Shown here piece by piece: positions 26,783 through 62,333 of a stretch of DNA of 64,000 bases (positions are counted from its first letter, which is position 1; the number at the start of each line of letters is the position of its first letter). The notes beneath the pieces are model-generated. The model was not told the DNA's origin. It ran no database searches and saw only the letters and a program-made list of their open reading frames with translations. The stretch lies in the IMG/VR virus record IMGVR_UViG_3300040770_000151. One strand, written 5' to 3'. This stretch comes from a virus. The position numbers were made by a program, and so were the translations under genes.

Positions 26783-26998
26783 ATGAAAAAAGAAACACAA
26801 ATACCGCAATTGCTTGAAGATTCTGTTAGTGGAATTGCTTATTTAGCTTTTATGAGGATTGATTATGAAGGAATTTACGAATCATCTATGAATTTATTTA
26901 ATAATAAAAAAGATGCTGAAAAACATTTAGACGAATTAAAAGAGTTACACGGCACTTGGTCTAATACTTATGAGGTCGTTGAGATGCATTGCCAATAA
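26783..26998 (+). CDS. Cassette ORF A1 (starts inside a half element)
   Basis: GTT crossover at 26825 is codon 15 (Val); stop overlaps TAAC. Confidence 0.7.
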   Translation: MKKETQIPQLLEDSVSGIAYLAFMRIDYEGIYESSMNLFNNKKDAEKHLDELKELHGTWSNTYEVVEMHCQ

Positions 26999-27087
26999 CG
27001 TTTTGCAGATAGGCGATGTAAAAGCCTTGTAGGATGTTGAATATTAGTAGTAAATTTGATGGCTTTTATATTGCCTATGTGCTTTTA
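26996..27087 (+). repeat. attC-like hairpin site A1 (core G mutated to T at 27084)
   Basis: gcagataggcgatgtaaaagcc / ggcttttatattgcctatgtgc arms. Confidence 0.7.
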
Positions 27088-27102
27088 TAAGCCGTTAATT
27101 TT

Positions 27103-27175
27103 GGAAACGTAGCAAAGATGGTCTATGCGGAGGACTGAAAATCCTTAGATGTTGGTTCGATACCAACCGTTTCCA
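27103..27175 (+). tRNA. trnF: tRNA-Phe (GAA)
   Basis: Acceptor GGAAACG/CGTTTCC-A, anticodon arm GAGGA-CTGAAAA-TCCTT, T arm GTTGG-TTCGATA-CCAAC; no encoded CCA. Confidence 0.9.
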
Positions 27176-27289
27176 CGAATGCAGTTCGATTCTGCTCGTT
27201 GACCGAGATTATGGTAAAGTCCGATGCGTGGTTCAATTCCACCGTTACGAAAGTAAACTGGGTAAACGGAGGTCTTTTTTAATAGCTTA

Positions 27290-27415
27290 TAACGTCCTGC
27301 CGCTTGGCGATGTTAGCGATAAGTAAGCCAAATATTCGAGTACTCACGAATAAAAACAGGTACAAAACCATTTATTAATTGAGCCTGATGCGCTAATCTT
27401 GCCAAACGGCTGTTA
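27290..27415 (+). repeat. attC-like hairpin site A2 (126 nt)
   Basis: TAAC-gtcct-gccgcttggcgatgttagcg...cgctaatcttgccaaacggc-t-GTTA. Confidence 0.8.
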
Positions 27416-27430
27416 TAACTCGTTTTTCTT

Positions 27431-27652
27431 ATGGAAACATTTACAAGTCTTGAAAACAGATTGCAAGTATTATCTAAATCTTTAAAAAGTTTAAAAAAAA
27501 TTGAAGCAGATAATAAAAAAGCATATGATATTATTTATGAAAAATTAATAAATTCACAAACAGATGTGAGACAAAAAGAGATTGAAATAGAGCCTTTAAA
27601 AAACTCACTTAAAGACTTATATTCTAAAAAATTAGATATTTTAACTCGGTAG
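27431..27652 (+). CDS. Cassette ORF A3 (coiled coil)
   Basis: Bracketed by GTTATAACTC ... GAGTTATAAC. Confidence 0.7.
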   Translation: METFTSLENRLQVLSKSLKSLKKIEADNKKAYDIIYEKLINSQTDVRQKEIEIEPLKNSLKDLYSKKLDILTR

Positions 27653-27665
27653 CCAAAATGAGTTA

Positions 27666-27792
27666 TAACGTTTTGTAGCTTGTTTCAGTGGCGTGCAAGT
27701 AAGCGAGTATTTTCGGTTTAAAAACTATAATAACAGAGAAGCCAAATCATTAAATTAAACACGATACCAGCCATTGCTACAAACTACTGTTA
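27666..27792 (+). repeat. attC-like hairpin site A3 (127 nt)
   Basis: TAAC-gtttt-gtagcttgtttcagtggc...gccattgctacaaactac-t-GTTA. Confidence 0.8.
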
Positions 27793-27825
27793 TGTTTAGT
27801 GTCGGGTTATTAAAACTAAATTATT

Positions 27826-28017
27826 ATGTGTAGTAGATACTGCGAAGATTGTGGATGTGGCAAATCAAATGGAATTTGCACAAATTGTAACGAAGAACTT
27901 TACATTATGGATTATCAATATCCTGAAATGGACGAAGAAATTGATTTTAGCGATGAGTTTGTTGAAAAGGTAAATGAGCAAAGAGAACGTCTGCATAAAA
28001 ATAAATGTAGCCATTAA
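27826..28017 (+). CDS. Cassette ORF A4 (CxxC Zn-ribbon-like)
   Basis: CEDC..C.NC; bracketed by GTTATGTTTAGTG ... CATTAAACATAAC. Confidence 0.7.
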   Translation: MCSRYCEDCGCGKSNGICTNCNEELYIMDYQYPEMDEEIDFSDEFVEKVNEQRERLHKNKCSH

Positions 28018-28020
28018 ACA

Positions 28021-28093
28021 TAACGTTCCGCAGCTACACGATGCCAGCCTATGCGGTTGCGTTGATTCGGCTGGTATTGTGTAACTGCTGTTA
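28021..28093 (+). repeat. attC-like hairpin site A4 (73 nt)
   Basis: TAAC-gttcc-gcagctacacgatgccagcc...ggctggtattgtgtaactgc-t-GTTA. Confidence 0.8.
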
Positions 28094-28289
28094 TGGCTTC
28101 GTTCTTTTTTAAACTAACAAAAAATAACAACTTGTAAAAAAATAATTAATTGTAATACGGGTAAAATTATAAAATGCACAAAAAACGGAGGTAGTTTAGG
28201 TTACTACATTAACTCCGTTTTCTTTAAAAAATATGATATTAATAATTTCATTGAAGTGATACCGAAATCAAAATATCCTTTTTAAAACT

Positions 28290-28318
28290 AAAAACGCTCC
28301 AATTAAGAGCGTTTTTTT
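28290..28318. terminator. Bidirectional terminator between early operon A and lysis genes
   Basis: aaaaacgctc-caattaa-gagcgttttttt. Confidence 0.8.
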
Positions 28319-28464
28319 ATTTTAATACCTAATTCATTCTTTACTTTATTTAATCTCTTAATCCACCTTAAAACACGCCCTACAAGTGTAGTTGGTGGTT
28401 TATCGCTTATTAACTCTGTTGCAACATCTATTATAATGTTTGGGTCAATTTGTTCTTGTTTCAT
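28303..28464 (-). CDS. Small basic amphipathic lysis-associated protein (53 aa; paralog 63065)
   Basis: Manual ORF MKQEQIDPNIIIDVATELISDKPPTTLVGRVLRWIKRLNK...; conserved in both lysis modules. Confidence 0.6.
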   Translation of the reverse strand: MKQEQIDPNIIIDVATELISDKPPTTLVGRVLRWIKRLNKVKNELGIKIKKRS

Positions 28465-28470
28465 ATCTAT

Positions 28471-28935
28471 TTAATTTTTAATTTCAAAATGCATTGCATC
28501 GTATCCCTTTTCTTTACCTAACGAAATAAATCCGTGTTTGTAAAAAATATCTATCATAGCCTTATACTCAGGTTTTGAGAATTGAGCATTTTTCCAAGTT
28601 GTTTTTAATGCATTTTTTTCAGGCGAAAGATCAATTGCAATTCCCCAACTATGTTTACTCGGTTGCGTTCCTCCACGCATAGCACGAAAATTAAAACAAC
28701 CTCCAAATAAGTCAATTCCTAATTCAAATATTTTTTGGTAACCGTAATGTGCTAAAATATCAGTAAAAACACTTGACAATTGATTGTGTATTAATTTGTG
28801 ACATTGCATTTTATTTACTTTTACGTTTTTATCCCAAGACAAACGCATTGGATAAGGTAAGTTTAAAGTAGTCAAGTAATTTGGGTTCTTACTAGGAATG
28901 CCATATTTCGCTATTGCTTGATCGGTTGTTATCAT
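28471..28935 (-). CDS. Endolysin, peptidase M15 family
   Basis: FGGCFNFR...SKHSWGIAID...DAMHFE. Confidence 0.88.
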   Translation of the reverse strand: MITTDQAIAKYGIPSKNPNYLTTLNLPYPMRLSWDKNVKVNKMQCHKLIHNQLSSVFTDILAHYGYQKIFELGIDLFGGCFNFRAMRGGTQPSKHSWGIAIDLSPEKNALKTTWKNAQFSKPEYKAMIDIFYKHGFISLGKEKGYDAMHFEIKN

Positions 28936-28938
28936 AAT

Positions 28939-29256
28939 TTATATTTTTGTTGATTCACTTATTACCATAAACATTAAACTAATTAAAGCGGTTATTAATA
29001 AGCCTGCAATAAATTTACCTGCTCTCATATGTTCTTTTAATAAAATATTTTCATCTTCTATTATTTCAACTTTTGTGTTTAGCTTGTCAAGTAGTTGAAT
29101 AAGTCCTTTATTACCGTTTATATTACTGCCAGCTAATGCTATTTTAACCTCTTGCATAAAATCTTTAACTTCGGTCATATCTTTCTTATATATCCTAAAA
29201 TGATGCTCTAAACGCTCAACATTTAGCTTGATTTCTGTAATGTCTTTTTGTTCCAT
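28939..29256 (-). CDS. Lysis-module protein with C-terminal TM helix (paralog 63680)
   Basis: Coiled coil plus TM; near-identical duplicate. Confidence 0.7.
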   Translation of the reverse strand: MEQKDITEIKLNVERLEHHFRIYKKDMTEVKDFMQEVKIALAGSNINGNKGLIQLLDKLNTKVEIIEDENILLKEHMRAGKFIAGLLITALISLMFMVISESTKI

Positions 29257-29569
29257 CAGTTATAAAAATTTGAGCATATATTGTTAAAAGTATCAATGTT
29301 GAATAAATAAAATAATACGTATCGTTTGTTATATGTTTGTATAATAATTGCAATGACAAAACGCTAATAATACATATAACAAAAATAACTTTTTTTATTG
29401 AATACTTTTGAATATTAAAAGTAAAATGAATAATTGAAAATACAATAAAAGGAATGTCTATTAAATTTATAATTTCAAAGTTGCTTAAATAAAAATCAGT
29501 GTCAACTAAAAAAAATATAAAAACCCACCATAAAAAAATAAAATATGGTAGGTTTAAAATTAATCTCAT
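29216..29569 (-). CDS. Multi-pass membrane protein
   Basis: Several hydrophobic segments. Confidence 0.55.
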   Translation of the reverse strand: MRLILNLPYFIFLWWVFIFFLVDTDFYLSNFEIINLIDIPFIVFSIIHFTFNIQKYSIKKVIFVICIISVLSLQLLYKHITNDTYYFIYSTLILLTIYAQIFITDGTKRHYRNQAKC

Positions 29570-29829
29570 TTCTTTGGTTTTGTTGGGAATGGTTGCCCTA
29601 TTAACTCATTATCTTCTGAACTTGCAAAAGATTGCGCTTTATTTGACGTGAAAAAATTCTTTGTCAAATAAGCAATTGCAGTCACTAATAACACTTTAAT
29701 TTCTGGACTAACATTTAATGAGGGAACGAACGTTTCTTGCAACCAATTAAAAACTGTTGCTAAAATTGCTATTAACAACCCTTTACCCAAATCTAGCCAA
29801 TTAAGGCTTAAAAAACTACTCTGTTTCAT
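29566..29829 (-). CDS. Holin
   Basis: FLSLNWLDLGKGLLIAI...AYLTKNFFT; two TM segments near endolysin. Confidence 0.75.
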   Translation of the reverse strand: MKQSSFLSLNWLDLGKGLLIAILATVFNWLQETFVPSLNVSPEIKVLLVTAIAYLTKNFFTSNKAQSFASSEDNELIGQPFPTKPKK

Positions 29830-29844
29830 ATTATATTTATTTAA

Positions 29845-30381
29845 TTAATTACGTGAAATCCCTTGAATGCTTAATGATGAATATTCTATTGATGTAACCC
29901 CTACTGTTGCAGTGTTTAGTCTAACAAATATTTTAAAACCATTTACTTTTAAAGCGTCACCGATATATAGAGGTAATGTAAAAGGTTTGTTTTTAAAGTT
30001 TGTATTAAATAAAGTTACATCGTAAACATCAGTAAATCCACCTTGATTTTCAAAAGGGAAATTTAACGGTACGCCTGCGCTAATTCCGTTCGGTATTTGT
30101 ATTCTCAATTGCAAAGACGCTCTTGTACTTATAATTGTGCTTAACGTTTCAAACTCAAATAACAAATTGAAGTTATGAGGGTATACATCGTTATAAGTAA
30201 ATAAATTTGTGCCTACATTATAATCAAACATAAATTTACCGCTTATAGGGTCTTTTCCGTAAGTATTCATAGTTTTACCCGATTCCGTGCCATTGTAGAC
30301 CAATTCTTGAAAAGTAGTTGTAAGCACTAAGGGCGTTGTTCTACTTACTATTAAACGAGGGTCTGCGCTAGATTGTGCCAT
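29845..30381 (-). CDS. Putative tail-fibre-associated protein
   Basis: Beta-rich; immediately after tail spike. Confidence 0.45.
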   Translation of the reverse strand: MAQSSADPRLIVSRTTPLVLTTTFQELVYNGTESGKTMNTYGKDPISGKFMFDYNVGTNLFTYNDVYPHNFNLLFEFETLSTIISTRASLQLRIQIPNGISAGVPLNFPFENQGGFTDVYDVTLFNTNFKNKPFTLPLYIGDALKVNGFKIFVRLNTATVGVTSIEYSSLSIQGISRN

Positions 30382-30384
30382 ATT

Positions 30385-32871
30385 TTATAAAATTATATAT
30401 TGTGATAAATTTGCCCCTATTGTTGTTTTTGAGTATTGACCGCTAACAACTAGTGTACTTGCTCCGTCAATATTAACCCCTCCTACGCTTTGAATTAATA
30501 CGCTATTTGCTGAGCTATCCATTTTTTTAACGGTTAATTTATAGCCTTGTAAAGCCGTAAAAGTAGGTAGAGTAACAGTAATATTCCCACTTGTTGTGTT
30601 TACACTTAAAATTAACTCGTTATTGTTTACAAAGTCACCTATTACAACTGTTTTGTTAGCTGTGATTGTTTGATTTGCGTATAAAGTTTGACCTTTAGTA
30701 ACGAAGTGGTTAAAAGCGGTAGCATTTGCCCCTTGCATTGTACCATCAAGATTAACTCTCGCTTTTTCATTGTTATTTACGTCTCTAAATGTAGCGATTA
30801 TACTTCCTGTTCCGTTATTTCTTATGTTTGCTCCAACAACCCCTACAGTAACTATACCGTAATCATTATTTGACTCAAAACTAGCACCAGCCGCAGCACC
30901 TGTCCCAGTGTTAATAGCAGTAAAAGCAGGATTTCCATTATTGGCTAAATTTATTGTTTTTACACCTGTTATAGTTTGAACTCCTGTCAACTTAACATTC
31001 CCACTATCAGCATTTGTTACAAAAGAAGTAGTAGCAATTGTACTACTTAAAACTTTCTCAAAAATTCCTGTACTTGAGTTCCGTGTTAAAAAGTCATAAG
31101 ACCCTGCACTTGTGGTTGGCGTATCTGATAAGGTGATCCCCGCAATTTGCATTTTCTCCCCTCCTAAGAAATCTCCGTACATATTAGATAGATTAGCAAG
31201 CTGAACGGTATACTCACTTATATCCGATCCCTCAACTCTGTTCCCTAATATAGTAGAATAACCTGCCCCGTTACCTCCAACTCCAAAAAATGCAATACCA
31301 TAGTCTCCGCAATTTATAATGATGTTGTTTGAAATCACGTTATACTTACCGTTAGTCGATCTAATTCCAGATCTATTCAATGCCGTATCTCTTACGCTAT
31401 TCCCTATTACATAAACATTGCTGGCGTTTTCTAAATTAATCGCTTCTAAACCACTATTTGACACGGTATTTCCTGATACTAAGCAGGGAGAAGATATAGG
31501 AGTGAATGGTATGCCGTCAACCGTAGGATCTACAGTTATACCTATTAATGTAGAATTATGCACCGTATTGCCTAACACTTTAGTGTTTTGATTTTGAGTT
31601 TTAGAAGGGTCTCCACCGCCTATCTGTATACCGTTAGTTCCGTTGTTTTTAAAAGTACTGTTTTCAATAGAGCAATTCAAGGAATATGTTACGCTGTAAC
31701 CACTGCTTAACGTGTTATTAGCTTGGCTGTTTATAACTGATATTTCGCCCGCATCGGTAAAATAGAAGCCCAAATCTGAACCCTCAGAAACACAACCGTC
31801 TAAAGTAATGTTTCTAACGTGTTTAATGTGAAAATTGTTTACGTCGCAATTATAGACTTTACAATTAGTAAGCTTACTATTGACATCTGGCGCATTATTG
31901 TTAAAAGGACTCCCCCCTTGACCACTTAGAAAAAATCCAAACTGCCACCCGTTAATAATAGTAACGTCCTCAGCAATAAAATTAGTCCAAGAAGGAGGAT
32001 TCATATATATACCATTGCCTAATATCTGACTTGCTGGATTAGTGGTATTGGCTTTATTCAAATCAATTGTAACCCCTTTAATAACACACCCATTTGTAGC
32101 TACTAATACACCGTTGAAATTTACGGTAGCGGAATTTTTTATTTTAATTGTAGCACCATAGCCTAACAGTGTTAAACCTGTTGTATTAATAGCCCCAGAA
32201 ACAAGATATATTTTTTTAGGCGTTAATTGAACTATTTCCCCAATAGAGGCGCTCATTGTTAATATCAATGCAGCCGTATCATCTGTTGCGTTATCCCCTT
32301 TAGCACCGAACCATTCTGGGCGTATGTGTAAGAAGTCTCTCTTAAAAAACTCACCGCCTAATTGAAAAAAAATAATTCCGTCAACCGTTGGTGTTCCCGT
32401 TACTTTTGATAAAGTAATTTCTTCACCCGTGTATTGGTCTAAGATGCCGTACAAAACATCCCCTTTTCTTTGAGCTAAAGAAAGGGATTCGTTTGATTTA
32501 ATCCATGCAAAATTTATTGTAGTCCACGTACCAGCACTACGACCAAACACCCCCGCTGTAGTTACATCTTCAACAAAATCTAAATTGTTATCAAATTGAG
32601 ATAATAAAGTAGGTTTGTTTTTTATAAAAGCAGGGTTTAAAGGATCGTTTATTGCGAAATCACTTTGACTTGACACGCTAGGGTCGATACTGTCTAACTT
32701 AGCTTTGTCTACAGCTGAAAAATTAACGTCCGTTAAACTTTTACCTGTTACTTTATCAACCTTATTTGCGTATAATTCGTCAAAATTATCGTCTGATTTA
32801 ACAAAAGCTTGTCTTAATGGGTCTCCCAATCCATCATTTGCAAAGCTATAATTTATTTTCTTTTGTGCCAT
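30385..32871 (-). CDS. Tail spike/fibre with parallel beta-helix (pectate-lyase-like depolymerase)
   Basis: DGLGDPLRQAF anchor, PEWFGAKGD..TDDTAA, Asn/Gly-rich PbH1-type repeats. Confidence 0.8.
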   Translation of the reverse strand: MAQKKINYSFANDGLGDPLRQAFVKSDDNFDELYANKVDKVTGKSLTDVNFSAVDKAKLDSIDPSVSSQSDFAINDPLNPAFIKNKPTLLSQFDNNLDFVEDVTTAGVFGRSAGTWTTINFAWIKSNESLSLAQRKGDVLYGILDQYTGEEITLSKVTGTPTVDGIIFFQLGGEFFKRDFLHIRPEWFGAKGDNATDDTAALILTMSASIGEIVQLTPKKIYLVSGAINTTGLTLLGYGATIKIKNSATVNFNGVLVATNGCVIKGVTIDLNKANTTNPASQILGNGIYMNPPSWTNFIAEDVTIINGWQFGFFLSGQGGSPFNNNAPDVNSKLTNCKVYNCDVNNFHIKHVRNITLDGCVSEGSDLGFYFTDAGEISVINSQANNTLSSGYSVTYSLNCSIENSTFKNNGTNGIQIGGGDPSKTQNQNTKVLGNTVHNSTLIGITVDPTVDGIPFTPISSPCLVSGNTVSNSGLEAINLENASNVYVIGNSVRDTALNRSGIRSTNGKYNVISNNIIINCGDYGIAFFGVGGNGAGYSTILGNRVEGSDISEYTVQLANLSNMYGDFLGGEKMQIAGITLSDTPTTSAGSYDFLTRNSSTGIFEKVLSSTIATTSFVTNADSGNVKLTGVQTITGVKTINLANNGNPAFTAINTGTGAAAGASFESNNDYGIVTVGVVGANIRNNGTGSIIATFRDVNNNEKARVNLDGTMQGANATAFNHFVTKGQTLYANQTITANKTVVIGDFVNNNELILSVNTTSGNITVTLPTFTALQGYKLTVKKMDSSANSVLIQSVGGVNIDGASTLVVSGQYSKTTIGANLSQYIIL

Positions 32872-33336
32872 CTAGTAGAAATCATTAAAATTAGTGGTTT
32901 CTTCGTCTTTCTTTTCGTAATCCCATTCTGGAATGGTTGTATTTCCCATAAATTTACGAAAATTATCTTCAATAGTTACGGCTAAATTCTTGTATTGATC
33001 TGCTAATTGATAAGTTTTTTGAGTAGGCTGACCGTTTGCCACTGATAAAATAGTATTCCCAATGTTAGACTGCTTTACCTCATTGAATAAAGTAAAATAA
33101 TAAGCAGTATAAAATACGTGCATATCAATAATGTACTTATCATAAATTGTCTTGTAAATACCTTGTAAATTAGCAAAATCATTAGTTATTTTATCAACTA
33201 AAGACTGACCTAAAACCCTAGTAACATCTGAAATTTGAGCGTAGTATATTTTCTGTAAAATAAGTTCGTTATCCGTTGCGCTACTTATTGAAGTTGTTGC
33301 TTTAAATTGTTCCGCTGTTATAAATAATTTTGTCAT
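32872..33336 (-). CDS. Head-tail adaptor-like protein
   Basis: Follows portal; AQISDV..VLG..L pattern. Confidence 0.55.
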   Translation of the reverse strand: MTKLFITAEQFKATTSISSATDNELILQKIYYAQISDVTRVLGQSLVDKITNDFANLQGIYKTIYDKYIIDMHVFYTAYYFTLFNEVKQSNIGNTILSVANGQPTQKTYQLADQYKNLAVTIEDNFRKFMGNTTIPEWDYEKKDEETTNFNDFY

Positions 33337-34487
33337 ATAGTTTCGTTATTTGTACTTTGTGGAACTTCTTCTGCTTTCTTAAACTCTTCAAAATCTTCAA
33401 ACTCTAAAACAATATTAACATCAATCAATTTGAATAACTTTGTCAATCCATCAATTACAACTTTTCGCAAAGGGTTTATATTCCTTCTATACATTTCCTT
33501 TGTAGCTACTAAAATTTCGTCAGCGTTTGAACTAAAACCACTCGCATTATTTGAACCACTAAAAAGTATTTTAGGAGCACTATGAGCTACAATAATTTTT
33601 CTTTCGCATTCCTCTGCAAAAAATACATTTTGCTGGTTTAAATTAGGCGTTTCTACTTGGTCAATTGTAGTTGCATCCAGTTCGTTTGTATTATAAGAAA
33701 CAACTACGTGATGCTTAGGACTTCCACCCGTGTAATCATCTTTTATTTTTTTAGCTTTTTCTTCTTTTACTGTTTCGCTCATCCCTTTTGATCCATTGAA
33801 ATTAATAACCGTAGTTATTTTATTTTCAAATTGAAAGTGCGTTTTAGTATTTTGACCTAAATAACCCTCAGCAATGCAATAATTAATTCCGCTAAAATAG
33901 TCTGGCAAAGGGTAGTATTTGTTTTTAGTTACTCTTTGAACTATAACTAATTCACAACCAGCTTGAAACGTACCGTCGAATTTTTTACATGCTGTAGGTC
34001 TATATGTTCCGCTTCTTTTCCAATCCTCAGAATGCCAATAAGCAACTACTCTAGGCTTTACCATTCTATCATCTATTTCCACTGCTATCTCTTCAATAGG
34101 CACATATTCAAATCTCAATATTTGTCTGTCTTTTTCTGAATCATTCCAAATAACTTGTAAACAAAAACCTCCAAACAGTTTAACATCTAAGCATATTAAT
34201 TCAACCGTATCTTCGTCTAAATATCTTGAAATATCCAAACTCGATCCTGTGTTTTTTAACCCATTTGCATACATGAAATTTACAAATGAATTAATTATAC
34301 TTTGATTAGTAGGGCTGTCGTCGTAAGCGTCACGCAAAGTTTTGTAATTTGAATTGTTAGCGCCATTACAAACTATATTAAATCCATTCTGAGTAACTAA
34401 AGGATTTATTTCAATAGGTTGCCAAGCTGACATTTTAACGACATCATTACTCATTGAATACACATTATTTTCTTTTTTTACTGCCAT
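33333..34487 (-). CDS. Portal protein, unit B
   Basis: YDDSPTNQSIIN, KLFGGF...W, YYPLPDY, AHS.P..LF. Confidence 0.8.
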   Translation of the reverse strand: MAVKKENNVYSMSNDVVKMSAWQPIEINPLVTQNGFNIVCNGANNSNYKTLRDAYDDSPTNQSIINSFVNFMYANGLKNTGSSLDISRYLDEDTVELICLDVKLFGGFCLQVIWNDSEKDRQILRFEYVPIEEIAVEIDDRMVKPRVVAYWHSEDWKRSGTYRPTACKKFDGTFQAGCELVIVQRVTKNKYYPLPDYFSGINYCIAEGYLGQNTKTHFQFENKITTVINFNGSKGMSETVKEEKAKKIKDDYTGGSPKHHVVVSYNTNELDATTIDQVETPNLNQQNVFFAEECERKIIVAHSAPKILFSGSNNASGFSSNADEILVATKEMYRRNINPLRKVVIDGLTKLFKLIDVNIVLEFEDFEEFKKAEEVPQSTNNETI

Positions 34488-34762
34488 CTTTTTGTATCTT
34501 GAGTTTGTGCGCTATAATTTTGAATATCAGTTCCGTTTTTTAAAAATATAATTTTGCCTTTATAAACTATTTCGTTATTTGAAGTAATTGTAAAAGCATA
34601 ATTTTGTCCCTCTGTAAATAATGAAGTGTTCAATATTGTAACTTGATTATTACTAACAACATTTTGAACTTCTAATCCTTCATCAAAAGTTAAAACAGCT
34701 GAATTAAAAGTAAATCGAGGAACAAATTTAAAAATAGTAGTATTAGGCGTGATTACTTTCAT
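34478..34762 (-). CDS. Hypothetical structural protein
   Basis: In virion operon. Confidence 0.5.
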   Translation of the reverse strand: MKVITPNTTIFKFVPRFTFNSAVLTFDEGLEVQNVVSNNQVTILNTSLFTEGQNYAFTITSNNEIVYKGKIIFLKNGTDIQNYSAQTQDTKRWQ

Positions 34763-34802
34763 ATTTTAAGGTAAAAAAGGCGGGATTAACCGCCTTTTAT
34801 TG

Positions 34803-35681: not shown

Positions 35682-35729
35682 ATAATTTAAGGTATTAAAA
35701 GGGAGTTTTCACGCTCCCTTTGATTAATG

Positions 35730-53036: not shown

Positions 53037-53053
53037 AATTTTAATTTTTAAGT

Positions 53054-54017: not shown

Positions 54018-54183
54018 AATTTTAAAATAAAAAATCCTATCGGTTTGAAGGTTGCAGCTTCTCCCCGATAGGATAATGAAAAATTTCTTTATTTGTAAAA
54101 AGCCTGCAACGAATTTTACTTTAGCAAATATAAAACAAAAAAAAACAATTAGCTACTATTTTTCACTAATTGTTTTTAAAAAT

Positions 54184-54450
54184 TTATAGTCTTTTAAATT
54201 CTATTTCATTGTTTAATTTTTTATACATTGTTTTTTTACAGAAATTATTTTGATTCAAACATTCTTTAACACTTTCATAAATAAACCCATCTGATAGCCT
54301 AATTACTTTTATTTTAAATCTATTCTCTGGAATGTTTAGCCTTTGATTGAAATATAAGTTATCTTCCTTAGTCCATACTGATTTATCCCATAAATAACAG
54401 TCTGGGTATTTAATCATTTTTTCACGTATTATGTTAGGTTTTGGCTTCAT
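54184..54450 (-). CDS. NUMOD1-like protein (paralog 21395)
   Basis: Similarity. Confidence 0.6.
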   Translation of the reverse strand: MKPKPNIIREKMIKYPDCYLWDKSVWTKEDNLYFNQRLNIPENRFKIKVIRLSDGFIYESVKECLNQNNFCKKTMYKKLNNEIEFKRL

Positions 54451-54650
54451 CTTTTAGTAAAATATCTTCTTATAAAATAACCTCTTAAAATACTAGATAC
54501 AAAAAACACAAATGTTATAATTAAATTCTGTTTAAAGGTAACAGGAATATCCATTAAAGGGTACAGAATTAATTGAATTAATATCGATGTCACTAAGCCT
54601 ATTAACGTTTGTGTTATCGATTCGAGTAACGAGAGTTTTTTTGATTGCAT
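54447..54650 (-). CDS. Small two-TM phage membrane protein
   Basis: QSKK.SLLES...QNL.IT..F...S..RGY..RR. Confidence 0.65.
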   Translation of the reverse strand: MQSKKLSLLESITQTLIGLVTSILIQLILYPLMDIPVTFKQNLIITFVFFVSSILRGYFIRRYFTKR

Positions 54651-54668
54651 AATTATTTTTTTTATGAA

Positions 54669-55085
54669 TTATTTTCCGCTTGATCCATAACCGCCTAAAG
54701 CTCTTTCGCTATCTGATAATTCATCAGTTAGTTCAAACTCGATTTGTGGGTAAGGTAAAATTAATATTTGCGCAGCACGGTTACCAACTTTATATTTTTG
54801 AGAAGAAGTCCCAATCATTACCGCTGATAATTCGCCACGATAACCGCTGTCAATAACTCCAACGCAATTAGACAAAATTTGTCTTTGTTTGTAACAACTT
54901 GAACGAGGAAATATTAAGCCAACATAACCGAAAGGAATTTCAATTGCTATTCCGAAATTATACTTTATGTGTTCATTATCTAGTATTCCAGTACTTACTA
55001 CTGTCAAATCCATTCCAGCGTCTCCATTTTTAGCATAAATTGGTATTACTGCGTTTTCGTGTAACTTCTTAATTTTTATTTTCAT
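54669..55085 (-). CDS. dut: dUTPase (trimeric)
   Basis: AGMDL, PRSS, GVIDSGYRGE, RAAQ, R..GGYGSSG. Confidence 0.92.
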   Translation of the reverse strand: MKIKIKKLHENAVIPIYAKNGDAGMDLTVVSTGILDNEHIKYNFGIAIEIPFGYVGLIFPRSSCYKQRQILSNCVGVIDSGYRGELSAVMIGTSSQKYKVGNRAAQILILPYPQIEFELTDELSDSERALGGYGSSGK

Positions 55086-55434
55086 ATTCTTTTTTATAAA
55101 GTTCTAATAAGTAAATTGTTTTGTCAATATCTTCAATAAAATTAGCTTTTTTTCTGCAACGCATAACACGTTTAATAATATCAAATTCGTACGTATTAAG
55201 CTGTTTATCTTCGCAAAACTGGTAAAGCGATCCTTTGCTATTGTCGTAGTTTTTTTGAGTCGTTAAATCGGGTTCTTTATCATTCCATTCTGCCCAAAAA
55301 TCAATACCTTCTTTTGTGTCTCCCCAAACAAAAGCCTTTTCTAAAGAATTTGTATCTTTGTCGCTTGTAACTGATTTTCTCTGATACTCTAACGCCTTTT
55401 CTTTTATTTCCTGTGGTAATTCGCTTATTTTCAT
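55069..55434 (-). CDS. MKISELP module fused to DUF3310-like domain
   Basis: IIKR..R.RKK....EDIDK..Y C-terminal pattern. Confidence 0.5.
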   Translation of the reverse strand: MKISELPQEIKEKALEYQRKSVTSDKDTNSLEKAFVWGDTKEGIDFWAEWNDKEPDLTTQKNYDNSKGSLYQFCEDKQLNTYEFDIIKRVMRCRKKANFIEDIDKTIYLLELYKKEYENKN

Positions 55435-55649
55435 AAATAATTCATTTTAGATTGTAAAGTTATTTCTTGAATTTTTCCAATAAAGTATAAATGTTGGTGT
55501 AATAAATCTTCCTGGTACTTGTCTAAATATAAAGCGTAATTGTTAATTCGCTTTACTTTTGTAGGTATGATTTTAATGCTTTTTATACATCTAGAAATTT
55601 CGTTATACATCATATCGCATTCTATAGCAATTTGCATTAAAGACTTCAT
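55431..55649 (-). CDS. Hypothetical protein
   Basis: ORF track. Confidence 0.55.
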   Translation of the reverse strand: MKSLMQIAIECDMMYNEISRCIKSIKIIPTKVKRINNYALYLDKYQEDLLHQHLYFIGKIQEITLQSKMNYL

Positions 55650-55752
55650 AACGCTAACATTTTAGCTATTTTAATAATAAATTGTTCTATTTTGTTTCTC
55701 ATAATTTTTTATTTAAACCGTCCTAAATTTTAGGACGGTTGGTTTTTTGTTT

Positions 55753-56085
55753 TTAAAAAGGAATATCAGATTCTTCTTCTTCTGAAACAGGTGTGGCATT
55801 AAATACCGTTTCTTTTTGATCCCATATAGTAGTAACTCCTTCGCCTATAAAAATAGTCTCTGCTTTCGCTTCTCTTTCTTCTTTAGTTTGTATTACGCTT
55901 GCAAAATGTGATTTCTGTAATTTATAACCGCTACCCTCGTGTATTATTTTAGGCTCTTTTACTTCTACAAGTTCAAATCTGACTTCTTGGACTTTCATTT
56001 TAATCCCTTCTTTTGAATCGAACTCTCTTTTTGTTACTAGATTACGTAATTTAGTAGCGTCTAATGTGATTGTTATTTTTGACAT
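55753..56085 (-). CDS. Probable SSB
   Basis: Acidic EESDIPF tail. Confidence 0.6.
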   Translation of the reverse strand: MSKITITLDATKLRNLVTKREFDSKEGIKMKVQEVRFELVEVKEPKIIHEGSGYKLQKSHFASVIQTKEEREAKAETIFIGEGVTTIWDQKETVFNATPVSEEEESDIPF

Positions 56086-56087
56086 AT

Positions 56088-56738
56088 TTAAAATTTTAAT
56101 TTGTTTAATTCAATTGTTATTTGTTCTTTTAATAATTCCCCTTCTTTTTTAGCTATTTCAACCCACTCATTGACAGTTTTTATAATTGGTTTGGCTTTTG
56201 TTCCTAAATTAATTAAGCTTTCTCTAGTAAGCTCTTTTACAAAAATAGGTTTATAAATGTTTTCGGGTCTGTAGCTACAAAAATAATGTTTTTGTAATTT
56301 AGGGTTTATCGTAAAATAGTGTAAACATTGGTGTATATTGTCGTTTGGAATATCATTTGCTCGAATAGTAGATAAATGTTTTTTTTTTGCAAAACATTTT
56401 ATTTCTGCTGATATTGTTTCATCTTCACTTATTCCATCTGGAGAAATGCCTAAGTATTCGTTTTCTTCGCATTGCAACCAACCAACCTCTAAAAGTTCAA
56501 TGCCTAAATATGCGCTTAATGCTTTTCTTGCTTCTGGCTCTAATTCTGAACCTCTTACCATATCATAAGATTGATAATTTTCTTGTAAGTCAAATTCTTC
56601 GCATAGTTCGCTTAAAACATCTTCTAATAAAGTATCTGATTTTACAAATAAACCTTTTGATAAAGTACCACCTATTTTCCCATATCTTACTTCGTGCCAT
56701 TCCTCAGAATGTTGTTCAATATCATTTCTAATTATCAT
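56088..56738 (-). CDS. YqaJ/lambda-exonuclease family nuclease
   Basis: QHSEEW..VR.GKIG, RG.ELEP.AR, GISPDG, EIKC. Confidence 0.88.
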   Translation of the reverse strand: MIIRNDIEQHSEEWHEVRYGKIGGTLSKGLFVKSDTLLEDVLSELCEEFDLQENYQSYDMVRGSELEPEARKALSAYLGIELLEVGWLQCEENEYLGISPDGISEDETISAEIKCFAKKKHLSTIRANDIPNDNIHQCLHYFTINPKLQKHYFCSYRPENIYKPIFVKELTRESLINLGTKAKPIIKTVNEWVEIAKKEGELLKEQITIELNKLKF

Positions 56739-57268
56739 TTTAAAGTAGTTTTAAGTTTTTCTTTTAAAGCAATTACAGTTGGTAAATGCTGTTCGGAAGG
56801 AGTTAATATTTTCCAAGCTATTTGTAAAGCTTCTAAAGAAGTACACATGTTTAAAGCAGAAATTGCAGTAACATCTGAAATAACTTTTTTAACAACAGGC
56901 TTAACTTTTATACCTCCTGTTACTTTACCCATCATTTTAACGCTAGGATCAAAAAACAAATCTATTTTAATACCTTTCCATTTAGGTAATTTTCTACTTT
57001 CTGCTGAACTGCAATTTAATTCTTGCTTTACAATTTCATTTATTATTTTTCTATTTCCACTATTAGCAACCATATCTTTAACAGGCTCTATAAATGAAAT
57101 AAAATAACCATCTGTTTTATTTCCAGAAACATCTACGCCTCTATCATAATAGGCTTCCTTAATTGTTAAAATACAATTTCCTTTTTCCTCCACAATTGCA
57201 TCTACATCAATCCCCGCTAAATGCGTTGACTTTCTGTATTTCATACTATCAATATCTAACTCTCTCAT
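56735..57268 (-). CDS. Hypothetical protein, possible ssDNA-annealing partner
   Basis: Adjacent to exonuclease; same slot as the RecT-like gene in unit A. Confidence 0.4.
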   Translation of the reverse strand: MRELDIDSMKYRKSTHLAGIDVDAIVEEKGNCILTIKEAYYDRGVDVSGNKTDGYFISFIEPVKDMVANSGNRKIINEIVKQELNCSSAESRKLPKWKGIKIDLFFDPSVKMMGKVTGGIKVKPVVKKVISDVTAISALNMCTSLEALQIAWKILTPSEQHLPTVIALKEKLKTTLK

Positions 57269-57274
57269 AATTTT

Positions 57275-57523
57275 CTATTTTAATTTTTCTATTAATCTTC
57301 TAACTTTTCCAGCTAAACCACTATCAACTGATTCTAAACAATAAAGTATATGGTTTGCTTCTTCTATAATATTTCTTTGCATTTCGTTAAATACTTCAAC
57401 ATAACCGTTGTCGTATGCTTCTGTTAAATTTATAATAGTTTCTACTATTTCAGCATCTACTTCAATCTCGTTTGCAGGATGCATACTGTTGTTCGTTCCT
57501 AAATAATTGTCGTCGTAATTCAT
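57275..57523 (-). CDS. First leftward early gene (paralog 25107)
   Basis: N-terminal similarity. Confidence 0.7.
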   Translation of the reverse strand: MNYDDNYLGTNNSMHPANEIEVDAEIVETIINLTEAYDNGYVEVFNEMQRNIIEEANHILYCLESVDSGLAGKVRRLIEKLK

Positions 57524-57549
57524 AATAATTTTTATTTAAATGATTAATA

Positions 57550-57645
57550 TTTTTTACAAAGATACATTTGTTTTTGACAAATCAATGTTAAAATTATGTT
57601 AAAAAGGAAAAGTAATGTATAAAAGCGCTATCTTTGACAAAAAAT
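57550..57645. promoter_or_regulatory. Divergent promoter pair, unit B
   Basis: TATCTTTG at 57557-57564 (minus) and 57629-57636 (plus). Confidence 0.75.
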
Positions 57646-57658
57646 AAATCACAACAAT

Positions 57659-57952
57659 ATGAACAAAGCATTTACAAAATCAAAAGAAATAGTATTAGAT
57701 GAAAATTACAAAATTATTCCTGATACTGACAATGGTGTTGTTTTAGTTTTTAAAACAAGTAGAGTTAATAAAAAAGATGAAACAGTACCGCACGAGGAAT
57801 TGTTTTATTACCCTAGAATTTCACAAGCACTAAAGCATTATGCAGATAAAACAATTAATAATTCTGAGAGTTTAGATGATTGTATTTATAAATCAGAATC
57901 AGTTTATAATTTGATAAAAAGATTAGACCAACAATTTAAACAATTTAATTAG
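57659..57952 (+). CDS. First rightward early gene (paralog 25496)
   Basis: Similarity. Confidence 0.75.
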   Translation: MNKAFTKSKEIVLDENYKIIPDTDNGVVLVFKTSRVNKKDETVPHEELFYYPRISQALKHYADKTINNSESLDDCIYKSESVYNLIKRLDQQFKQFN

Positions 57953-57957
57953 TAAAT

Positions 57958-58137
57958 ATGAAAACCAAGAAACACAAAATAGTAAATGGTAAATGGCAAA
58001 TTAAAAACATTTACGACGCTTTACAAGCTAGTTTATTTGATATTTATATAAATACCCATCGTGAATTAGAAACGCCTGCATTAAGGTCTAAAATAACGAA
58101 AGAATACAACTATAAATTTAATTTTACAAACAGATGA
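57958..58137 (+). CDS. Hypothetical protein (59 aa; paralog 25898)
   Basis: Manual ORF MKTKKHKIVNGKWQIKNIYDALQAS. Confidence 0.65.
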   Translation: MKTKKHKIVNGKWQIKNIYDALQASLFDIYINTHRELETPALRSKITKEYNYKFNFTNR

Positions 58138-58421
58138 AAAATTTAAAAATAAAAGAAATTAATTTTTTAAAAGGAGAAGAAAGAGGTTTGACAAAAAATT
58201 ACCCTTCAAACGGTTTTTTTATTTCAAGGTTCGAAAACGGAACTAGCGACTTTATTCTTGTTGACAAGAATGCTGAGCGTGTTATTTTTCTTTGTCCAGA
58301 AGAAATATTTAATTCAATTTCTGAATACGAAGAAGAAACAATAATTTCAGAACCTAATACCGATACCTATAAAGGTGATTTTATTCTTGAATTTGCTAGA
58401 ATTTTATTAAACAGAAAATAA
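58134..58421 (+). CDS. Hypothetical protein
   Basis: Occupies the slot of 26095 in unit A but is unrelated. Confidence 0.6.
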   Translation: MKNLKIKEINFLKGEERGLTKNYPSNGFFISRFENGTSDFILVDKNAERVIFLCPEEIFNSISEYEEETIISEPNTDTYKGDFILEFARILLNRK

Positions 58422-58435
58422 CTAAAAATAAAACA

Positions 58436-58684
58436 ATGATAACAGAACAACTAATACCACTTTTGAAGAATAAAAGAGAAAATTTAAAAGGAACAACACT
58501 ACCAACGGTTAAACTTTGGGAATCTGGTACACGTTCGCCATTATTAAAAAACGTTGACCAAATATGTAAAGCAAACGATTTAAAAGTTTTGGTTTATGAT
58601 GGTAACTTAGATACTTTGATAAATTTTGCGCATAAAGTCGCTAAAGAACAAGGTATGAAAATGATTCTTAATTTTGAGGCTTAA
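58436..58684 (+). CDS. XRE-like HTH regulator (paralog 26481)
   Basis: Near-identical; stop codon lies in TAAC of site B1. Confidence 0.7.
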   Translation: MITEQLIPLLKNKRENLKGTTLPTVKLWESGTRSPLLKNVDQICKANDLKVLVYDGNLDTLINFAHKVAKEQGMKMILNFEA

Positions 58685-58786
58685 CGTCCTGCAGCTACAC
58701 GATGCTAGTCTAAGTGCTTAGTAGATTCGGCTGCTGAATTATGTTATGTGTTATAAGTAGTACGGGTAATTAAAAAAAATGTAATT

Positions 58787-58963
58787 ATGAAAGAAAAATT
58801 TAAAAGTTATTTAGAAAGATTAAAGTCTTTTAATAAAGCGGAAAATTATAATTATACAGATGACGATTTTGATAAGTATAAAGATTATATTAGAGATTGT
58901 TGGCTAAGTAATTTAAGCGTACATAAATGCCTTGAATTTATGTATTTTGAAACGGAATCGTAG
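58787..58963 (+). CDS. Cassette ORF B1 (58 aa)
   Basis: Manual ORF MKEKFKSYLERLK...FMYFETES. Confidence 0.65.
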   Translation: MKEKFKSYLERLKSFNKAENYNYTDDDFDKYKDYIRDCWLSNLSVHKCLEFMYFETES

Positions 58964-59137
58964 TATTACTTATAATGGATCAGTGATATGAGAGGATTTT
59001 CGGAACGGAAATCACGAATATTTACTGCCAAAACTAATATTACCCAGTACAAAACAATAAATCAATAATCACAAATGCCGAAAATCGCTCATATCACTTG
59101 TTACTGGCTGTGCTTTTTCGGCTCAAAAAATTAAAAA

Positions 59138-59560
59138 ATGGATATTAAAACTATCAAAATTAAAAAAGTGGATACTGAAAAATTAATTGAATTTTTAGCA
59201 ATCCCATTGAATGAGAATGAAAAATTATCAATAGATGTTTTTGGAGTTTTTGAAAACAAATTCGGAATCGATACTGATTGTTGTTTCTGGGAAATAAATC
59301 AAGCGTTCTTTAATGAAAAAATACAAGATGTAATTGATATTGAATGTAGAATTAAGAAGTATAACGATAAAGGAGGTTATTCAATTAGAATGGATAAAGC
59401 TGATTTTGTAAAAACAATTTCTTTAGAAGATTATTTGAAATTATCTGAAGAAGTTATGCTTGTAGATTTTATAAGATTGGATTATAATCCGAGAATTACA
59501 GGCAATCAAAAATTATTGATGAAACATATTAGACAAAGTTATGCCGTTCCAACCGCATAG
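59138..59560 (+). CDS. Cassette ORF B2
   Basis: ORF track; between sites B2 and B3. Confidence 0.7.
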   Translation: MDIKTIKIKKVDTEKLIEFLAIPLNENEKLSIDVFGVFENKFGIDTDCCFWEINQAFFNEKIQDVIDIECRIKKYNDKGGYSIRMDKADFVKTISLEDYLKLSEEVMLVDFIRLDYNPRITGNQKLLMKHIRQSYAVPTA

Positions 59561-59686
59561 CCAGTAACGCCTACCGCTACAGCACGCCGCCTAAGTGGTT
59601 GCGTAGGTTCGGCGGTGGTTTGTAACGGTTGTTATGCCTTCGCCTTTTTATTTACAACATATTATTAACTAATAAATTATAAAAAA

Positions 59687-60163
59687 ATGAACAATTATTT
59701 ATTTAAAAAAATAGAACAAGCTCACGGAGCTTATTTTGAAAACTTAACTTTTATTGCAAATGAAGTTTGTCGTGAAAGACAATCAGAATCGTTTGAAGAA
59801 TTTACTGAATTAGAACCTGCTGAAATAGCAAAAGTTTTAGGATGGAATGACAAAAAAGAAACCCTATCTCTAATTGAAAGCGAAATAAAAGACAAAAGTT
59901 TATCTGGATTATTATTGAGATACGATATGACTGGATTTTTAGCACAATGTATGATGCCTGAATGTTCAAATTTTAGATTTGAAGAAGGAAAAGAAAGACC
60001 TTGCTCGTGGAGTGTTCACGGTGGAATTTGCAGAATATTTTGGATTTATGCTGAATCAATAGGCGAGCTAGTTGAAAAGTTAGAGCAAAAAGCAGAGAAT
60101 TTATTTTTAGAAGCCGTAAATAAATCAAGGTCAGTTGTAGATTCCAACCAAGCTGACGCATAA
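59687..60163 (+). CDS. Cassette ORF B3
   Basis: Stop overlaps TAAC of B4. Confidence 0.7.
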   Translation: MNNYLFKKIEQAHGAYFENLTFIANEVCRERQSESFEEFTELEPAEIAKVLGWNDKKETLSLIESEIKDKSLSGLLLRYDMTGFLAQCMMPECSNFRFEEGKERPCSWSVHGGICRIFWIYAESIGELVEKLEQKAENLFLEAVNKSRSVVDSNQADA

Positions 60164-60315
60164 CGGTCGAGTGCTTGGCGAAGAAGCGGAAAAGTACATG
60201 CTATTTTTCGATTAAGCCTAAATTTTAAAGACACAAAATATATTATAAATTAATAACCGAACCCGCTTTTTTGCCAAACACTTGTTATGGTTAGTGCGGT
60301 TCATAAAAACAAAAA

Positions 60316-60795
60316 GTGATGAAACAATTAAATCAAATTATCAAAACATTAAGAGAAGAAACGGCTTTTTCATTTACCGAAAAGAAATTAGAAATACTTA
60401 GAAGTCAAAAAGATTATTCAGAAATGATGAAACAATGTTATAGCGGGAAAGATAATACTACTATTGAAGAATGTGAAGAAAACGCTATTAGAACGTTTGT
60501 TTCTGAATATCAAAAAATGTGTGAGATTTATTCAGGATGGTTGAAAAATGGAAAGGTTTTTATTTTAGATAAAAGAGACCATTTTATTCTTGCACTATAC
60601 AAAGTTGATGATATTGCACATAAGGCAATTGCACAATACAATCCATTGAATGTAGATTGCATTGAGCAATCAATTTCAAATAAACATTTTTTCGAGCAAT
60701 TAAATATCCGTTTTGATATTTCTACAAATGAAGAATTATTAATTAAAGAATGTGATTTGTTAATCAAAAATTCAATTGTTTACCCAGCACCGTAG
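60316..60795 (+). CDS. Cassette ORF B4
   Basis: Between sites B4 and B5. Confidence 0.7.
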   Translation: MMKQLNQIIKTLREETAFSFTEKKLEILRSQKDYSEMMKQCYSGKDNTTIEECEENAIRTFVSEYQKMCEIYSGWLKNGKVFILDKRDHFILALYKVDDIAHKAIAQYNPLNVDCIEQSISNKHFFEQLNIRFDISTNEELLIKECDLLIKNSIVYPAP

Positions 60796-61066
60796 CATTA
60801 ACCATAACGGAATGTGGCTTTATTTCAGTTGCAAAATTCGTAACCGATAATTTTCGGCTAATAAAAAACGACTTTCGAAAGATAATTTTGATTTTATCAG
60901 ATATTTTGCAATTGAATAAAACCACTGTTATCGCTAGTTGCAAGTAGTTCAGAAAAATACTTTAGAAAATAATTTAAATATTTTATAAAAACACTTGTTT
61001 ATTATAAAATAAGTTATATATTTGCTAAAGAAATAACAACGAAGTTATTTTGTAATTTTTATTATT

Positions 61067-61312
61067 ATGAATAATGTTTATACAAATAGTCGTCCAACTG
61101 AAAGTTTTTGCAAACTAAAAGCTACTTGTGGATTACACGGTAATTTAGACATTCACGGAATGGAATGGAGCGAAAGAGTTATTTTAAAAGTAGTTGCTTT
61201 TGATAGAACTAACGGAGTTTTAATCGTTGAAAATGATAACGGATTAAAATGGAATACAGATTTGAAGAAAATGCAATTCTGTTTAGAGAATGGCAATTCA
61301 GTTCCAAACTAA
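61067..61312 (+). CDS. Cassette B5 ORF 1
   Basis: Behind internal TATATTTG promoter 61017-61024. Confidence 0.65.
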   Translation: MNNVYTNSRPTESFCKLKATCGLHGNLDIHGMEWSERVILKVVAFDRTNGVLIVENDNGLKWNTDLKKMQFCLENGNSVPN

Positions 61313-61514
61313 AATGCCATTCATCCTAAAAAATAAAGAAACCGAGCAATATAGATTGTTCGGTTCTTTACCTATCCTTTGCCGAAGCATTGGATTTGAC
61401 GAAAAAAAAGAGAAAAATTTGCTTTACACTTTCTCTCAAAAAAAAGAAATAAAGTTTGAAAATAACGAGTTTCTAATTGTAAAAGTCTTTTTAGAACGTG
61501 GTGGCAGCAATTAG
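61290..61514 (+). CDS. Cassette B5 ORF 2, possible small DNA-binding protein
   Basis: Overlaps ORF 1; FGSLPILC motif resembles the C-terminus of 4570-4836. Confidence 0.55.
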   Translation: MAIQFQTKMPFILKNKETEQYRLFGSLPILCRSIGFDEKKEKNLLYTFSQKKEIKFENNEFLIVKVFLERGGSN

Positions 61515-61590
61515 CGATAACGTTTTGCGGCTTTGTCGTCGTTGTGGCGTTTGAACACAAATATTAACAAAGAAAACAAATCATTAAATT

Positions 61591-61788
61591 ATGCCAAATA
61601 CTTCCAAAAATGCCCAAGTGCCACAATGCGACAAAACCGCTGTTAGCAGTAGTTATTCGTTAGATGAAGTTAGAAATATTGTTCTTGAAATGCGTAATGA
61701 AGCGATATCTGGTTTAAGAGGTGAGAGGCGTTGGGACATGCAAAAACGACTTGGTAAAATAAGAGATAAATGGAAGTTGGGGTATTAA
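61591..61788 (+). CDS. Cassette ORF B6 (starts inside site B6)
   Basis: GTT crossover at 61642 is codon 18 (Val). Confidence 0.6.
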   Translation: MPNTSKNAQVPQCDKTAVSSSYSLDEVRNIVLEMRNEAISGLRGERRWDMQKRLGKIRDKWKLGY

Positions 61789-61902
61789 TTACTGCTAACG
61801 TTCCCGCGATAGGGGCTGTTTGCCTATGCGGAAACCTACTTTCGGCAAATAGACCTTATCGTGTGTTATCAATATTATGAATTATTAAAACAAAAATAAA
61901 TT

Positions 61903-62163
61903 ATGGAAACTAAAAAACCAAACAATCCAAGTGCATTTCCTGTAATAGCTACAGAACAATCGTTTTTTAATCAAAGCCCATTAATGCCTGAATCAGGAAT
62001 GACTTTAAGAGACCATTTTGCTGGATTAGCAATGCAGGGATTAATGTCAATGGAAGAAAAAGGAGAGTATCAAACAATTGATGATGCTTGGAGGAAAATA
62101 GCTGAATACTCGTATCAAATGGCTAACGCTATGCTAAAAGTTCGTGAAGAAACGGAATCGTAA
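61903..62163 (+). CDS. Cassette ORF B7, widespread phage AFP...GMTLRD family
   Basis: SAFP...GMTLRDHFAGLAMQG...YQMANAMLK.RE. Confidence 0.75.
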   Translation: METKKPNNPSAFPVIATEQSFFNQSPLMPESGMTLRDHFAGLAMQGLMSMEEKGEYQTIDDAWRKIAEYSYQMANAMLKVREETES

Positions 62164-62333
62164 TATTATTGATAACGGTTCGCTAGTAGGCGATGGTTAG
62201 GGTCAGGATTCTAATTGTGGCGAATTCTCCTTAATTAAACCAAGTACAAAAAACTAATTAAATTAATCACGATGCCCAACTATTGCTTACTAGCTGTTAG
62301 CATTTGTGCGGGTAACTAAAACTAAATATTATT

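Follow-up and report, generated by a model that had tools for sequence, protein, structure and literature searches.

Start codons inside attC-like hairpins: phage cassette arrays whose sites appear to open the reading frame of the gene behind them

Our analysis concerns a stretch of viral DNA of 64,000 nucleotides (IMG/VR record IMGVR_UViG_3300040770_000151; hereafter "the window"), which carries two arrays of small genes separated by hairpins that resemble the attC recombination sites of integrons. In the usual view an integron cassette is a gene without a promoter, behind which stands a recombination site that, if anything, hinders translation. Two open reading frames (ORFs) of the window arrays, here named ORF 26783 and ORF 61591 after their first nucleotide, open instead at an ATG that lies in the preceding site, upstream of its GTT core, and read through this core into the body of the protein. 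To judge from the comparisons presented below, both must start at the in-site ATG, and the same arrangement is found in 54 of the 174 forward cassettes (31%) of a larger set of such sites.

ORF 61591 begins 51 nt ahead of core G 61642, inside site B6. Its ATG is apical in the hairpin and follows an A-rich leader, the 17 codons of its own leader run along the 3' arm, and the GTT is read in frame as Val. ORF 26783 begins 42 nt before core G 26825 and likewise reads the GTT as an in-frame Val. A first-pass annotation of this DNA had placed both starts in the hairpin upstream of the crossover, which is borne out for ORF 61591; for ORF 26783 the position and the frame stand, but not the complete hairpin, because this thirteenth GTT is preceded only by a loop-like stretch and a 3' arm (site A0), with no complete hairpin upstream of 26783 and no call by the covariance model described below. 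Loops resembling the A-rich stretch of A0 occur in other sites of the larger set. A0 lies directly after an AAC box (26731-26733), which follows the stop of a backbone gene (26481-26729), and the stop codon of ORF 26783 (TAA, 26996-26998) falls within the next AAC box. Stops in or just before the next AAC box, formed by the TAA of TAAC (e.g. 26996-26999), are very common among cassette ORFs at many loci, and such units therefore begin with an in-site ATG and close with a stop at the crossover.

A covariance model of the site, built from the 12 window hairpins, recovered all 12 of them and gave no other match in the window. In contigs of metagenome-assembled genomes (MAGs) it matched 98 sites beyond these 12; an uncultured Flavobacterium MAG (G001) has more than 83, and a Chitinophagales MAG has 12. 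A pattern search for the 5' arm added 120 viral contigs with 279 further sites. Window, MAGs and viral contigs together comprise 266 unique complete cassettes, and 174 of these are forward cassettes, with their ORF along the direction of the site. In the viral contigs (L095-L214) the ORF follows the site direction in 153 cassettes and opposes it in 5, in the G001 arrays (L069-L088) 14 ORFs are forward and 38 reverse. Several G001 contigs (C42, C55, C110, C227 and others, L069-L088) carry long arrays whose sites are near-identical within each array.

In the window alone only 2 of 11 cassettes start within a site, which could be due to chance because both ORFs also possess in-frame ATGs further downstream, at +27 and +48 relative to the core. 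The match of reading frames in the larger set means, however, that the observation stands. In 57 of the 174 forward cassettes an in-frame ATG precedes the core and its frame is open, and in the 54 mentioned above this ATG lies between -90 and -10, behind an A-rich leader, with offsets clustering at -41/-42, -45, -50/-51 and -57 to -63. Among sites with an ATG whose frame stays open through the core, 69 of 101 are followed by a main ORF in that frame, where 42.3 would be expected (p=7e-8). Two frames are in use, one that reads the GTT as Val and one that reads, one base later, TTR as Leu; the third is shut by the TAG of GTTAG cores. The in-site start pattern is beyond chance, and the random frame across the core that the first-pass annotation had named as grounds for abandoning its view was not found. 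Its statement that the upstream site provides the start codon holds for ORF 26783, ORF 61591 and about one third of the forward cassettes elsewhere.

Several observations indicate that the in-site ATGs are genuine starts. The 20 nt in front of them contain 55% A and 5% G, similar to the 20 nt in front of the own starts of other cassettes (47% A, 9% G). In front of the first downstream ATG of the in-site cassettes the values are 35% and 18%, compared with a background of 39% and 19% for any internal ATG; by upstream composition these downstream ATGs look like internal Met codons. No in-frame ATG occurs within +90 nt in 23 of the 54 in-site cassettes, and 10 have neither ATG nor GTG or TTG in this range. 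In four N6/N4 DNA methyltransferases the N6_N4_Mtase domain extends from residue 37-38 while the first internal Met is residue 111, 92, 62 or 117, and in two C5 methyltransferases the domain begins 4-8 residues past the core GTT (Pfam). Homologous bodies come in two forms: some have an ATG of their own directly ahead of the conserved N-terminus, in others a leader encoded by the site takes its place. Predicted RNA folds put the start region, mostly unpaired, in the apical part of the hairpin and the leader codons along the 3' arm.

Database homologues of the two window ORFs are 70-94% identical in their bodies from the Val onwards and carry 6-8 unrelated leaders of 13-18 residues (alignments A6, A7); likewise, in DNA alignments similarity begins exactly at the GTT (A8 for ORF 61591, A9 for ORF 26783). 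A search for both bodies at the DNA level, which is free of gene-caller bias, returned four loci only (L215-L218). One of these, L217 of the 26783 family, lies away from any site and has its own ATG two residues before a conserved YLAF, and therefore the internal Met of ORF 26783 cannot be the start. In the 61591 family 12 synonymous and 2 non-synonymous differences fall in the 12 codons from the R box to the first internal Met, and there is no start codon between the core and this stretch. It is from the start of L217, the synonymous excess and the lack of a start codon past the core that we conclude on an in-site start of both window proteins. The N-terminal motif that the first-pass annotation had seen in both is real, but it corresponds to one frame of the conserved DNA of the 3' arm, and the leaders of a second family come from the next frame of this DNA. 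The motif therefore gives no ground to assume a selected peptide.

Which gene a hairpin travels with can be examined where related cassettes have different neighbours. L224 is near-identical to the window from just after the AAC box of B6 through the site, the core and ORF 61591 to the next AAC box (A10), and unrelated on either side of this block. Between L216 and L225 there is no difference until the AAC box that follows an ORF of the 26783 type; beyond it they carry different site-plus-gene units (A11). Array 2 opens with a site at the stop of a backbone gene (58436-58684), whose stop the AAC box overlaps, and closes with a lone AAC box (62550-62552) that no hairpin follows. Finally, 54 of 55 start-less cassettes stand behind a frame-compatible site, as expected if site and following gene form one unit; among the sites, 34% provide frame 0 and 21% frame 1. 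The exception, L107 (core 9357 in site orientation), is the only start-less forward cassette behind a site without an in-frame ATG and may have been silenced by a mismatched joint. We consider it likely, on these comparisons, that the unit usually exchanged is a site with the ORF behind it, cut at the AAC box.

As the hairpin stays with the gene behind it, ordinary shuffling should keep leader and body together. The first-pass annotation had proposed that the N-terminus depends on cassette order, which is not supported by the three informative breakpoints of close pairs, all of which lie at the AAC box. Its fusion N-termini fare better: the same body does occur behind unrelated leaders, with the break at GTT, although new combinations would not arise by ordinary exchange. 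The alignments thus indicate that bodies have been re-joined to other sites at GTT, in older or rarer events. In an all-against-all comparison the dataset yielded 8 near-identical cassette pairs, too few to settle the breakpoints; of 5 pairs other than the closest ones with a left break at a box, 4 break at AAC and 1 at GTT. Among homologous cassettes (window 61642 and 61797-61799; A8-A11), close pairs lose their similarity at the AAC box and distant pairs at both AAC and GTT, as if both boxes acted as crossovers or site interiors were replaced. The occurrence of similar sites joined to unrelated bodies was also considered as evidence for exchange at GTT and was rejected, the attC sites of one host being alike in any case.

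Several features favour an integron-type character of the sites. All 12 window sites fold into an imperfect hairpin with an inverse core (..YAAC) and a core box (GTTR..); the hairpins start with ..TAACG and end with ..CTGTTA, TAA.G and GTTA are invariant in the site alignment, and 378 of 383 model matches have the GTT at the expected position or one base ahead of it. In its right half, each GTT box corresponds to the next AAC box and not to its own. The box halves thus co-vary with the neighbouring cassette, and an excised circle would therefore carry a fully paired site. Exchange at a box is indicated by comparative evidence, i.e. by the breaks at AAC and at GTT. The layout is not that of a canonical attC, as the sites have a one-sided bulge of 4-5 nt beside the AAC box, G-T pairs and a C-A mismatch. 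Integron-integrase-like genes stand beside sites in G001 (contig C302, L091) and in G002 (contig C48), with 122 and 110 bits compared to a cut-off of 265. As in ORF-11 of class 1 integrons, a start signal and an ATG are located within the site and upstream of the crossover; a short peptide that ends in or just after the core, followed by a restart of the main gene, is not present in ORF 26783, ORF 61591 and the 52 others, whose frame runs on into the cassette protein.

An explanation that we regard as probable, and which is drawn from sequence comparison, is that these hairpins are attC-like recombination sites that double as 5' expression adaptors of the gene behind them in phage arrays. One class of long sites, to which ORF 26783 and ORF 61591 would belong, would hold in its apical loop an A-rich and G-poor translation initiation region of the Bacteroidota style, followed by the ATG. 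The 3' arm would then be read as a hydrophilic leader of 13-20 codons, the reading would pass the GTT as Val, or one base later as Leu, and the leader frame would enter an ORF without a start of its own, often ending at a TAA within the next AAC box. Ribosomes may bind to the exposed loop and unwind the 3' arm during elongation. A cut at the AAC box would represent the canonical integron crossover viewed from the other strand: the + strand of the window would correspond to the bottom strand, the one that recombines, the phage genes would lie antisense relative to classical cassettes, and a cassette seen from the other side would consist of a gene body plus an attC, cut at the core, whereas the phage gene would start within its own site. 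The opposite gene direction in the MAG arrays and the IntI-like gene beside the C302 site fit this antisense arrangement. Over longer times, bodies re-joined to other sites at GTT would give new fusions of leader and body. A wider proposal, which we advance tentatively and hold to be less than evenly probable, is that the hairpin serves two purposes, as a recombination site and as a portable start with leader, and that both of its boxes act as crossovers. If so, phages would move ready-to-express units by the AAC cut, and a rarer GTT cut would graft start and leader onto a start-less gene fragment, a possible birth of new cassettes.

The pattern of conserved bodies behind changing leaders can have other explanations. 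On the one hand, the hairpin might belong to the cassette in front of it, with the crossover at GTT and a new N-terminus at each reshuffle, as the first-pass annotation had it. The 6-8 unrelated leaders with their sharp break at GTT would follow directly from such an arrangement, as would the half-site at the beginning and the full site at the end of array 1, and one dataset pair does break at GTT. Yet the closest pairs keep the site together with the following ORF and break at the AAC box, so do 4 of the 5 other pairs with a left break at a box, and random re-pairing predicts mostly incompatible sites where only 1 of 55 is incompatible; this reading appears unlikely to us. On the other hand, the hairpins could be conserved linkers, with a terminator or translation-start function, which serve co-infecting phages as patches of homology and are not integrase substrates. 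The window has no integrase, similarity between related sites stops at both boxes, and breaks occur at GTT as well as at AAC, all of which agrees with linkers. Inverted repeats of 7-14 nt at both ends of each ORF module, as predicted by circular cassette intermediates, the more than 83 sites in long arrays of a single Flavobacterium MAG and the integron-integrase-like genes of G001 and G002, which lie near sites but score below the family cut-off, speak against them, and we give linkers a similarly small chance. Even if the hairpins were such linkers, the in-site start would still be real.

The most trivial explanation is that the extensions are artefacts of mechanical ORF calling, open by luck, and that the true start is the first ATG past the GTT. 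The downstream ATGs of the two window ORFs are indeed near the usual range of +19 to +56, and 2 of 11 cassettes are compatible with chance. An artefact would account neither for the frame match of the larger set nor for enzyme domains that begin far upstream of the first internal Met, an own-start homologue (L217) that begins before the internal Met, the synonymous excess upstream of that Met and the background composition in front of the downstream ATGs. It is largely refuted, and we retain hardly any belief in it. Some of our observations nevertheless weigh against an adaptor hairpin with in-site starts that is cut at AAC. The homologues from protein databases are biased towards ORFs that gene callers could open, and only L215-L218 are free of this bias. 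An in-frame ATG within +90 nt is also found in 31 of the 54 in-site cassettes, in 9 of them at +3, and some starts may therefore lie downstream. The unit structure rests on three informative breakpoints, and array 1 taken alone, with its half-site first and full site last, equally fits the opposite phase. The one-sided bulge lies on the arm that has no extra bases in a canonical attC, which leaves linkage as the guide to the strand assignment. Lastly, a Pfam scan of 10 large ORFs and tblastn found no integrase in the window; this fits the integrase-less subtype known as clusters of attC sites lacking integron-integrases (CALINs).

Self-comparison revealed that the window consists of two related Flavobacterium-type phage genomes in tandem, whose common backbone recurs about 32 kb apart. 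Each possesses capsid and terminase genes (Pfam scan), and among cultured phages those of Flavobacterium are most closely related. In both phages a row of small ORFs on the + strand, with imperfect hairpins between them, occupies the same place in the backbone (Table 1). The core G is at 27094, 27412, 27789 and 28090 in array 1 and at 58750, 59100, 59631, 60284, 60927, 61642, 61865 and 62296 in array 2.

Table 1. Coordinates of sites, arrays and reading frames discussed in the text
Feature	Coordinates	Strand	Remarks
Degenerate site A0	26734..26824	+	A-rich loop-like leader, ATG 26783, 14-codon leader from 3' arm; 5' arm missing
ORF 26783	26783..26998	+	71 aa; start in A0; core GTT 26825-26827 = Val; homologues found
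Array 1, remainder	26990..28102	+	Sites A1 26990-27106, A2 27284-27424, A3 27660-27801, A4 28015-28102
Array 2	58676..62552	+	Sites B1 to B8
Site B2	58967..59112	+	Upstream ORF 59075-59134 crosses core G 59100 out of GTT frame
Site B6	61512..61654	+	Long class, 97.8 bits; AAC box 61519-61521; core GTT 61642-61644
ORF 61591	61591..61788	+	65 aa; start codon and 17-residue leader encoded by B6
Site B8	62167..62319	+	Upstream ORF 62272-62319 crosses core G 62296 in GTT frame

The cassettes in the remainder of array 1 have their own starts at +19 and +37, the main ORFs behind B2 (59138-59560) and B8 (62334-62546) start at +38, and the remaining window cassettes start between +19 and +56 past the core, with one at +140. 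The sole gene of the cassette between A1 and A2 is a tRNA-Phe (GAA) at 27103-27176, with no ORF there. Between the last recognised box and the common terminator the two phages are unlike each other (62553-63045 and 28103-28290; the former contains an ORF, 62596-62880), and these stretches may hold further cassettes without a recognisable site. Against viral contigs, the backbone protein 26481-26729 gave weak relatives only, none with sites; the downstream backbone protein was found at 54 genome loci, just 2 of which have sites; two further window cassettes have one relative or none among the viral contigs.

Short upstream ORFs (uORFs) cross the cores of two window sites, as the first-pass annotation had described. 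The one in B2 starts 25 nt before the core G and ends 3 nt before the ATG of the main ORF, the one in B8 starts 24 nt before the core G, reads the GTT as Val and ends 14 nt before the following ATG. An in-site ATG whose frame reaches the core is present in 32 of 85 own-start cassettes. The translational coupling suggested for these uORFs fits their geometry, but the enrichment is marginal: 21 of 37 uORFs have their stop in the interval from -10 to +20 nt around the main ATG, compared to 85 of 218 control frames (p=0.048). The ATG at -24/-25 belongs to a motif of the stem and is present in 7 of 43 sites of reverse arrays that no forward gene follows. By analogy with class 1 integrons, coupling is possible. 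In addition, unrelated own-start cassettes have a conserved leader in common that follows the hairpin, and their ATG lies at +34 to +40 (window 27789-27828, 58750-58789 and 62296-62336, and 17 cassettes of the larger set). This looks like a second site design, in which the start signal would stand behind the stem instead of in the loop.

The cargo with in-site starts includes N6/N4 and C5 DNA methyltransferases and a protein similar to phosphoadenosine phosphosulfate (PAPS) reductases (L125, L178, L180, L188, L202, L167, L211). This cargo suggests an anti-restriction role of the arrays; cassette DNA methyltransferases probably counter host restriction. The site would give the translation start and first residues of about one third of phage-borne cassettes, DNA methyltransferases among them. 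Gene callers and cassette catalogues that cut at the core would truncate or miss such genes, and the arrangement illustrates how phages pack expressible genes into units of 300-700 nt. The acquisition of sites by cassettes also becomes testable, because the joint lies in a fixed reading frame.

The closest known counterparts are ORF-11, ORF-17 and ORF-18 in the attI1 site of class 1 integrons (PMC8876359). There, too, an initiation region and an ATG lie in a recombination site and a short ORF crosses the crossover and aids the next cassette; likewise, a TAG at positions 3-5 of the GTT core shuts one frame. These ORFs, however, encode short peptides, terminate within the core or directly behind it and exert their effect through coupling; they are located in attI and not in attC, and they use a Shine-Dalgarno sequence (PMC8876359), whereas in the phage sites the ORF continues as the cassette protein, the site is a hairpin and the A-rich leader has no Shine-Dalgarno sequence. 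Where the stem-loop of an attC site hinders translation of the following cassette, short ORFs within the site relieve this barrier (Jacquier et al. 2009, as summarised in PMC8876359). Translation through the hairpin opens it in that case also, which makes these ORFs the best precedent for the two window uORFs; as far as that summary goes, they act by termination and reinitiation in a few resistance cassettes and form no site class, in contrast to the in-frame fusion seen here. N-terminal fusions are known from class 1 integrons, e.g. gcuF1-blaOXA-28 (PMC3375312) and variants of aac(6')-Ib (PMC8876359), in which the N-terminus of a cassette protein likewise derives from upstream sequence. Such fusions are accidental, caused by attC loss or insertion, and often harm expression; in the phage sites the fusion is systematic, as its share of forward cassettes shows.

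CALINs in phage genomes, i.e. attC clusters without an integrase and often with DNA methyltransferases, have been described by Qi et al. 2023 (PMC9892861), and the window arrays resemble them in being phage-borne, in lacking an integrase and in the methyltransferase cargo of such sites. That paper makes no mention of start codons within sites, and our site model gave no match to Polaribacter phage P12002L described there, nor to any of the cultured phage records. In literature searches we came across no account of attC-type sites from which cassette proteins systematically take their start and leader. The framework of integrons and CALINs is known; the in-site start with its leader is what the phage arrays would add to it as new.

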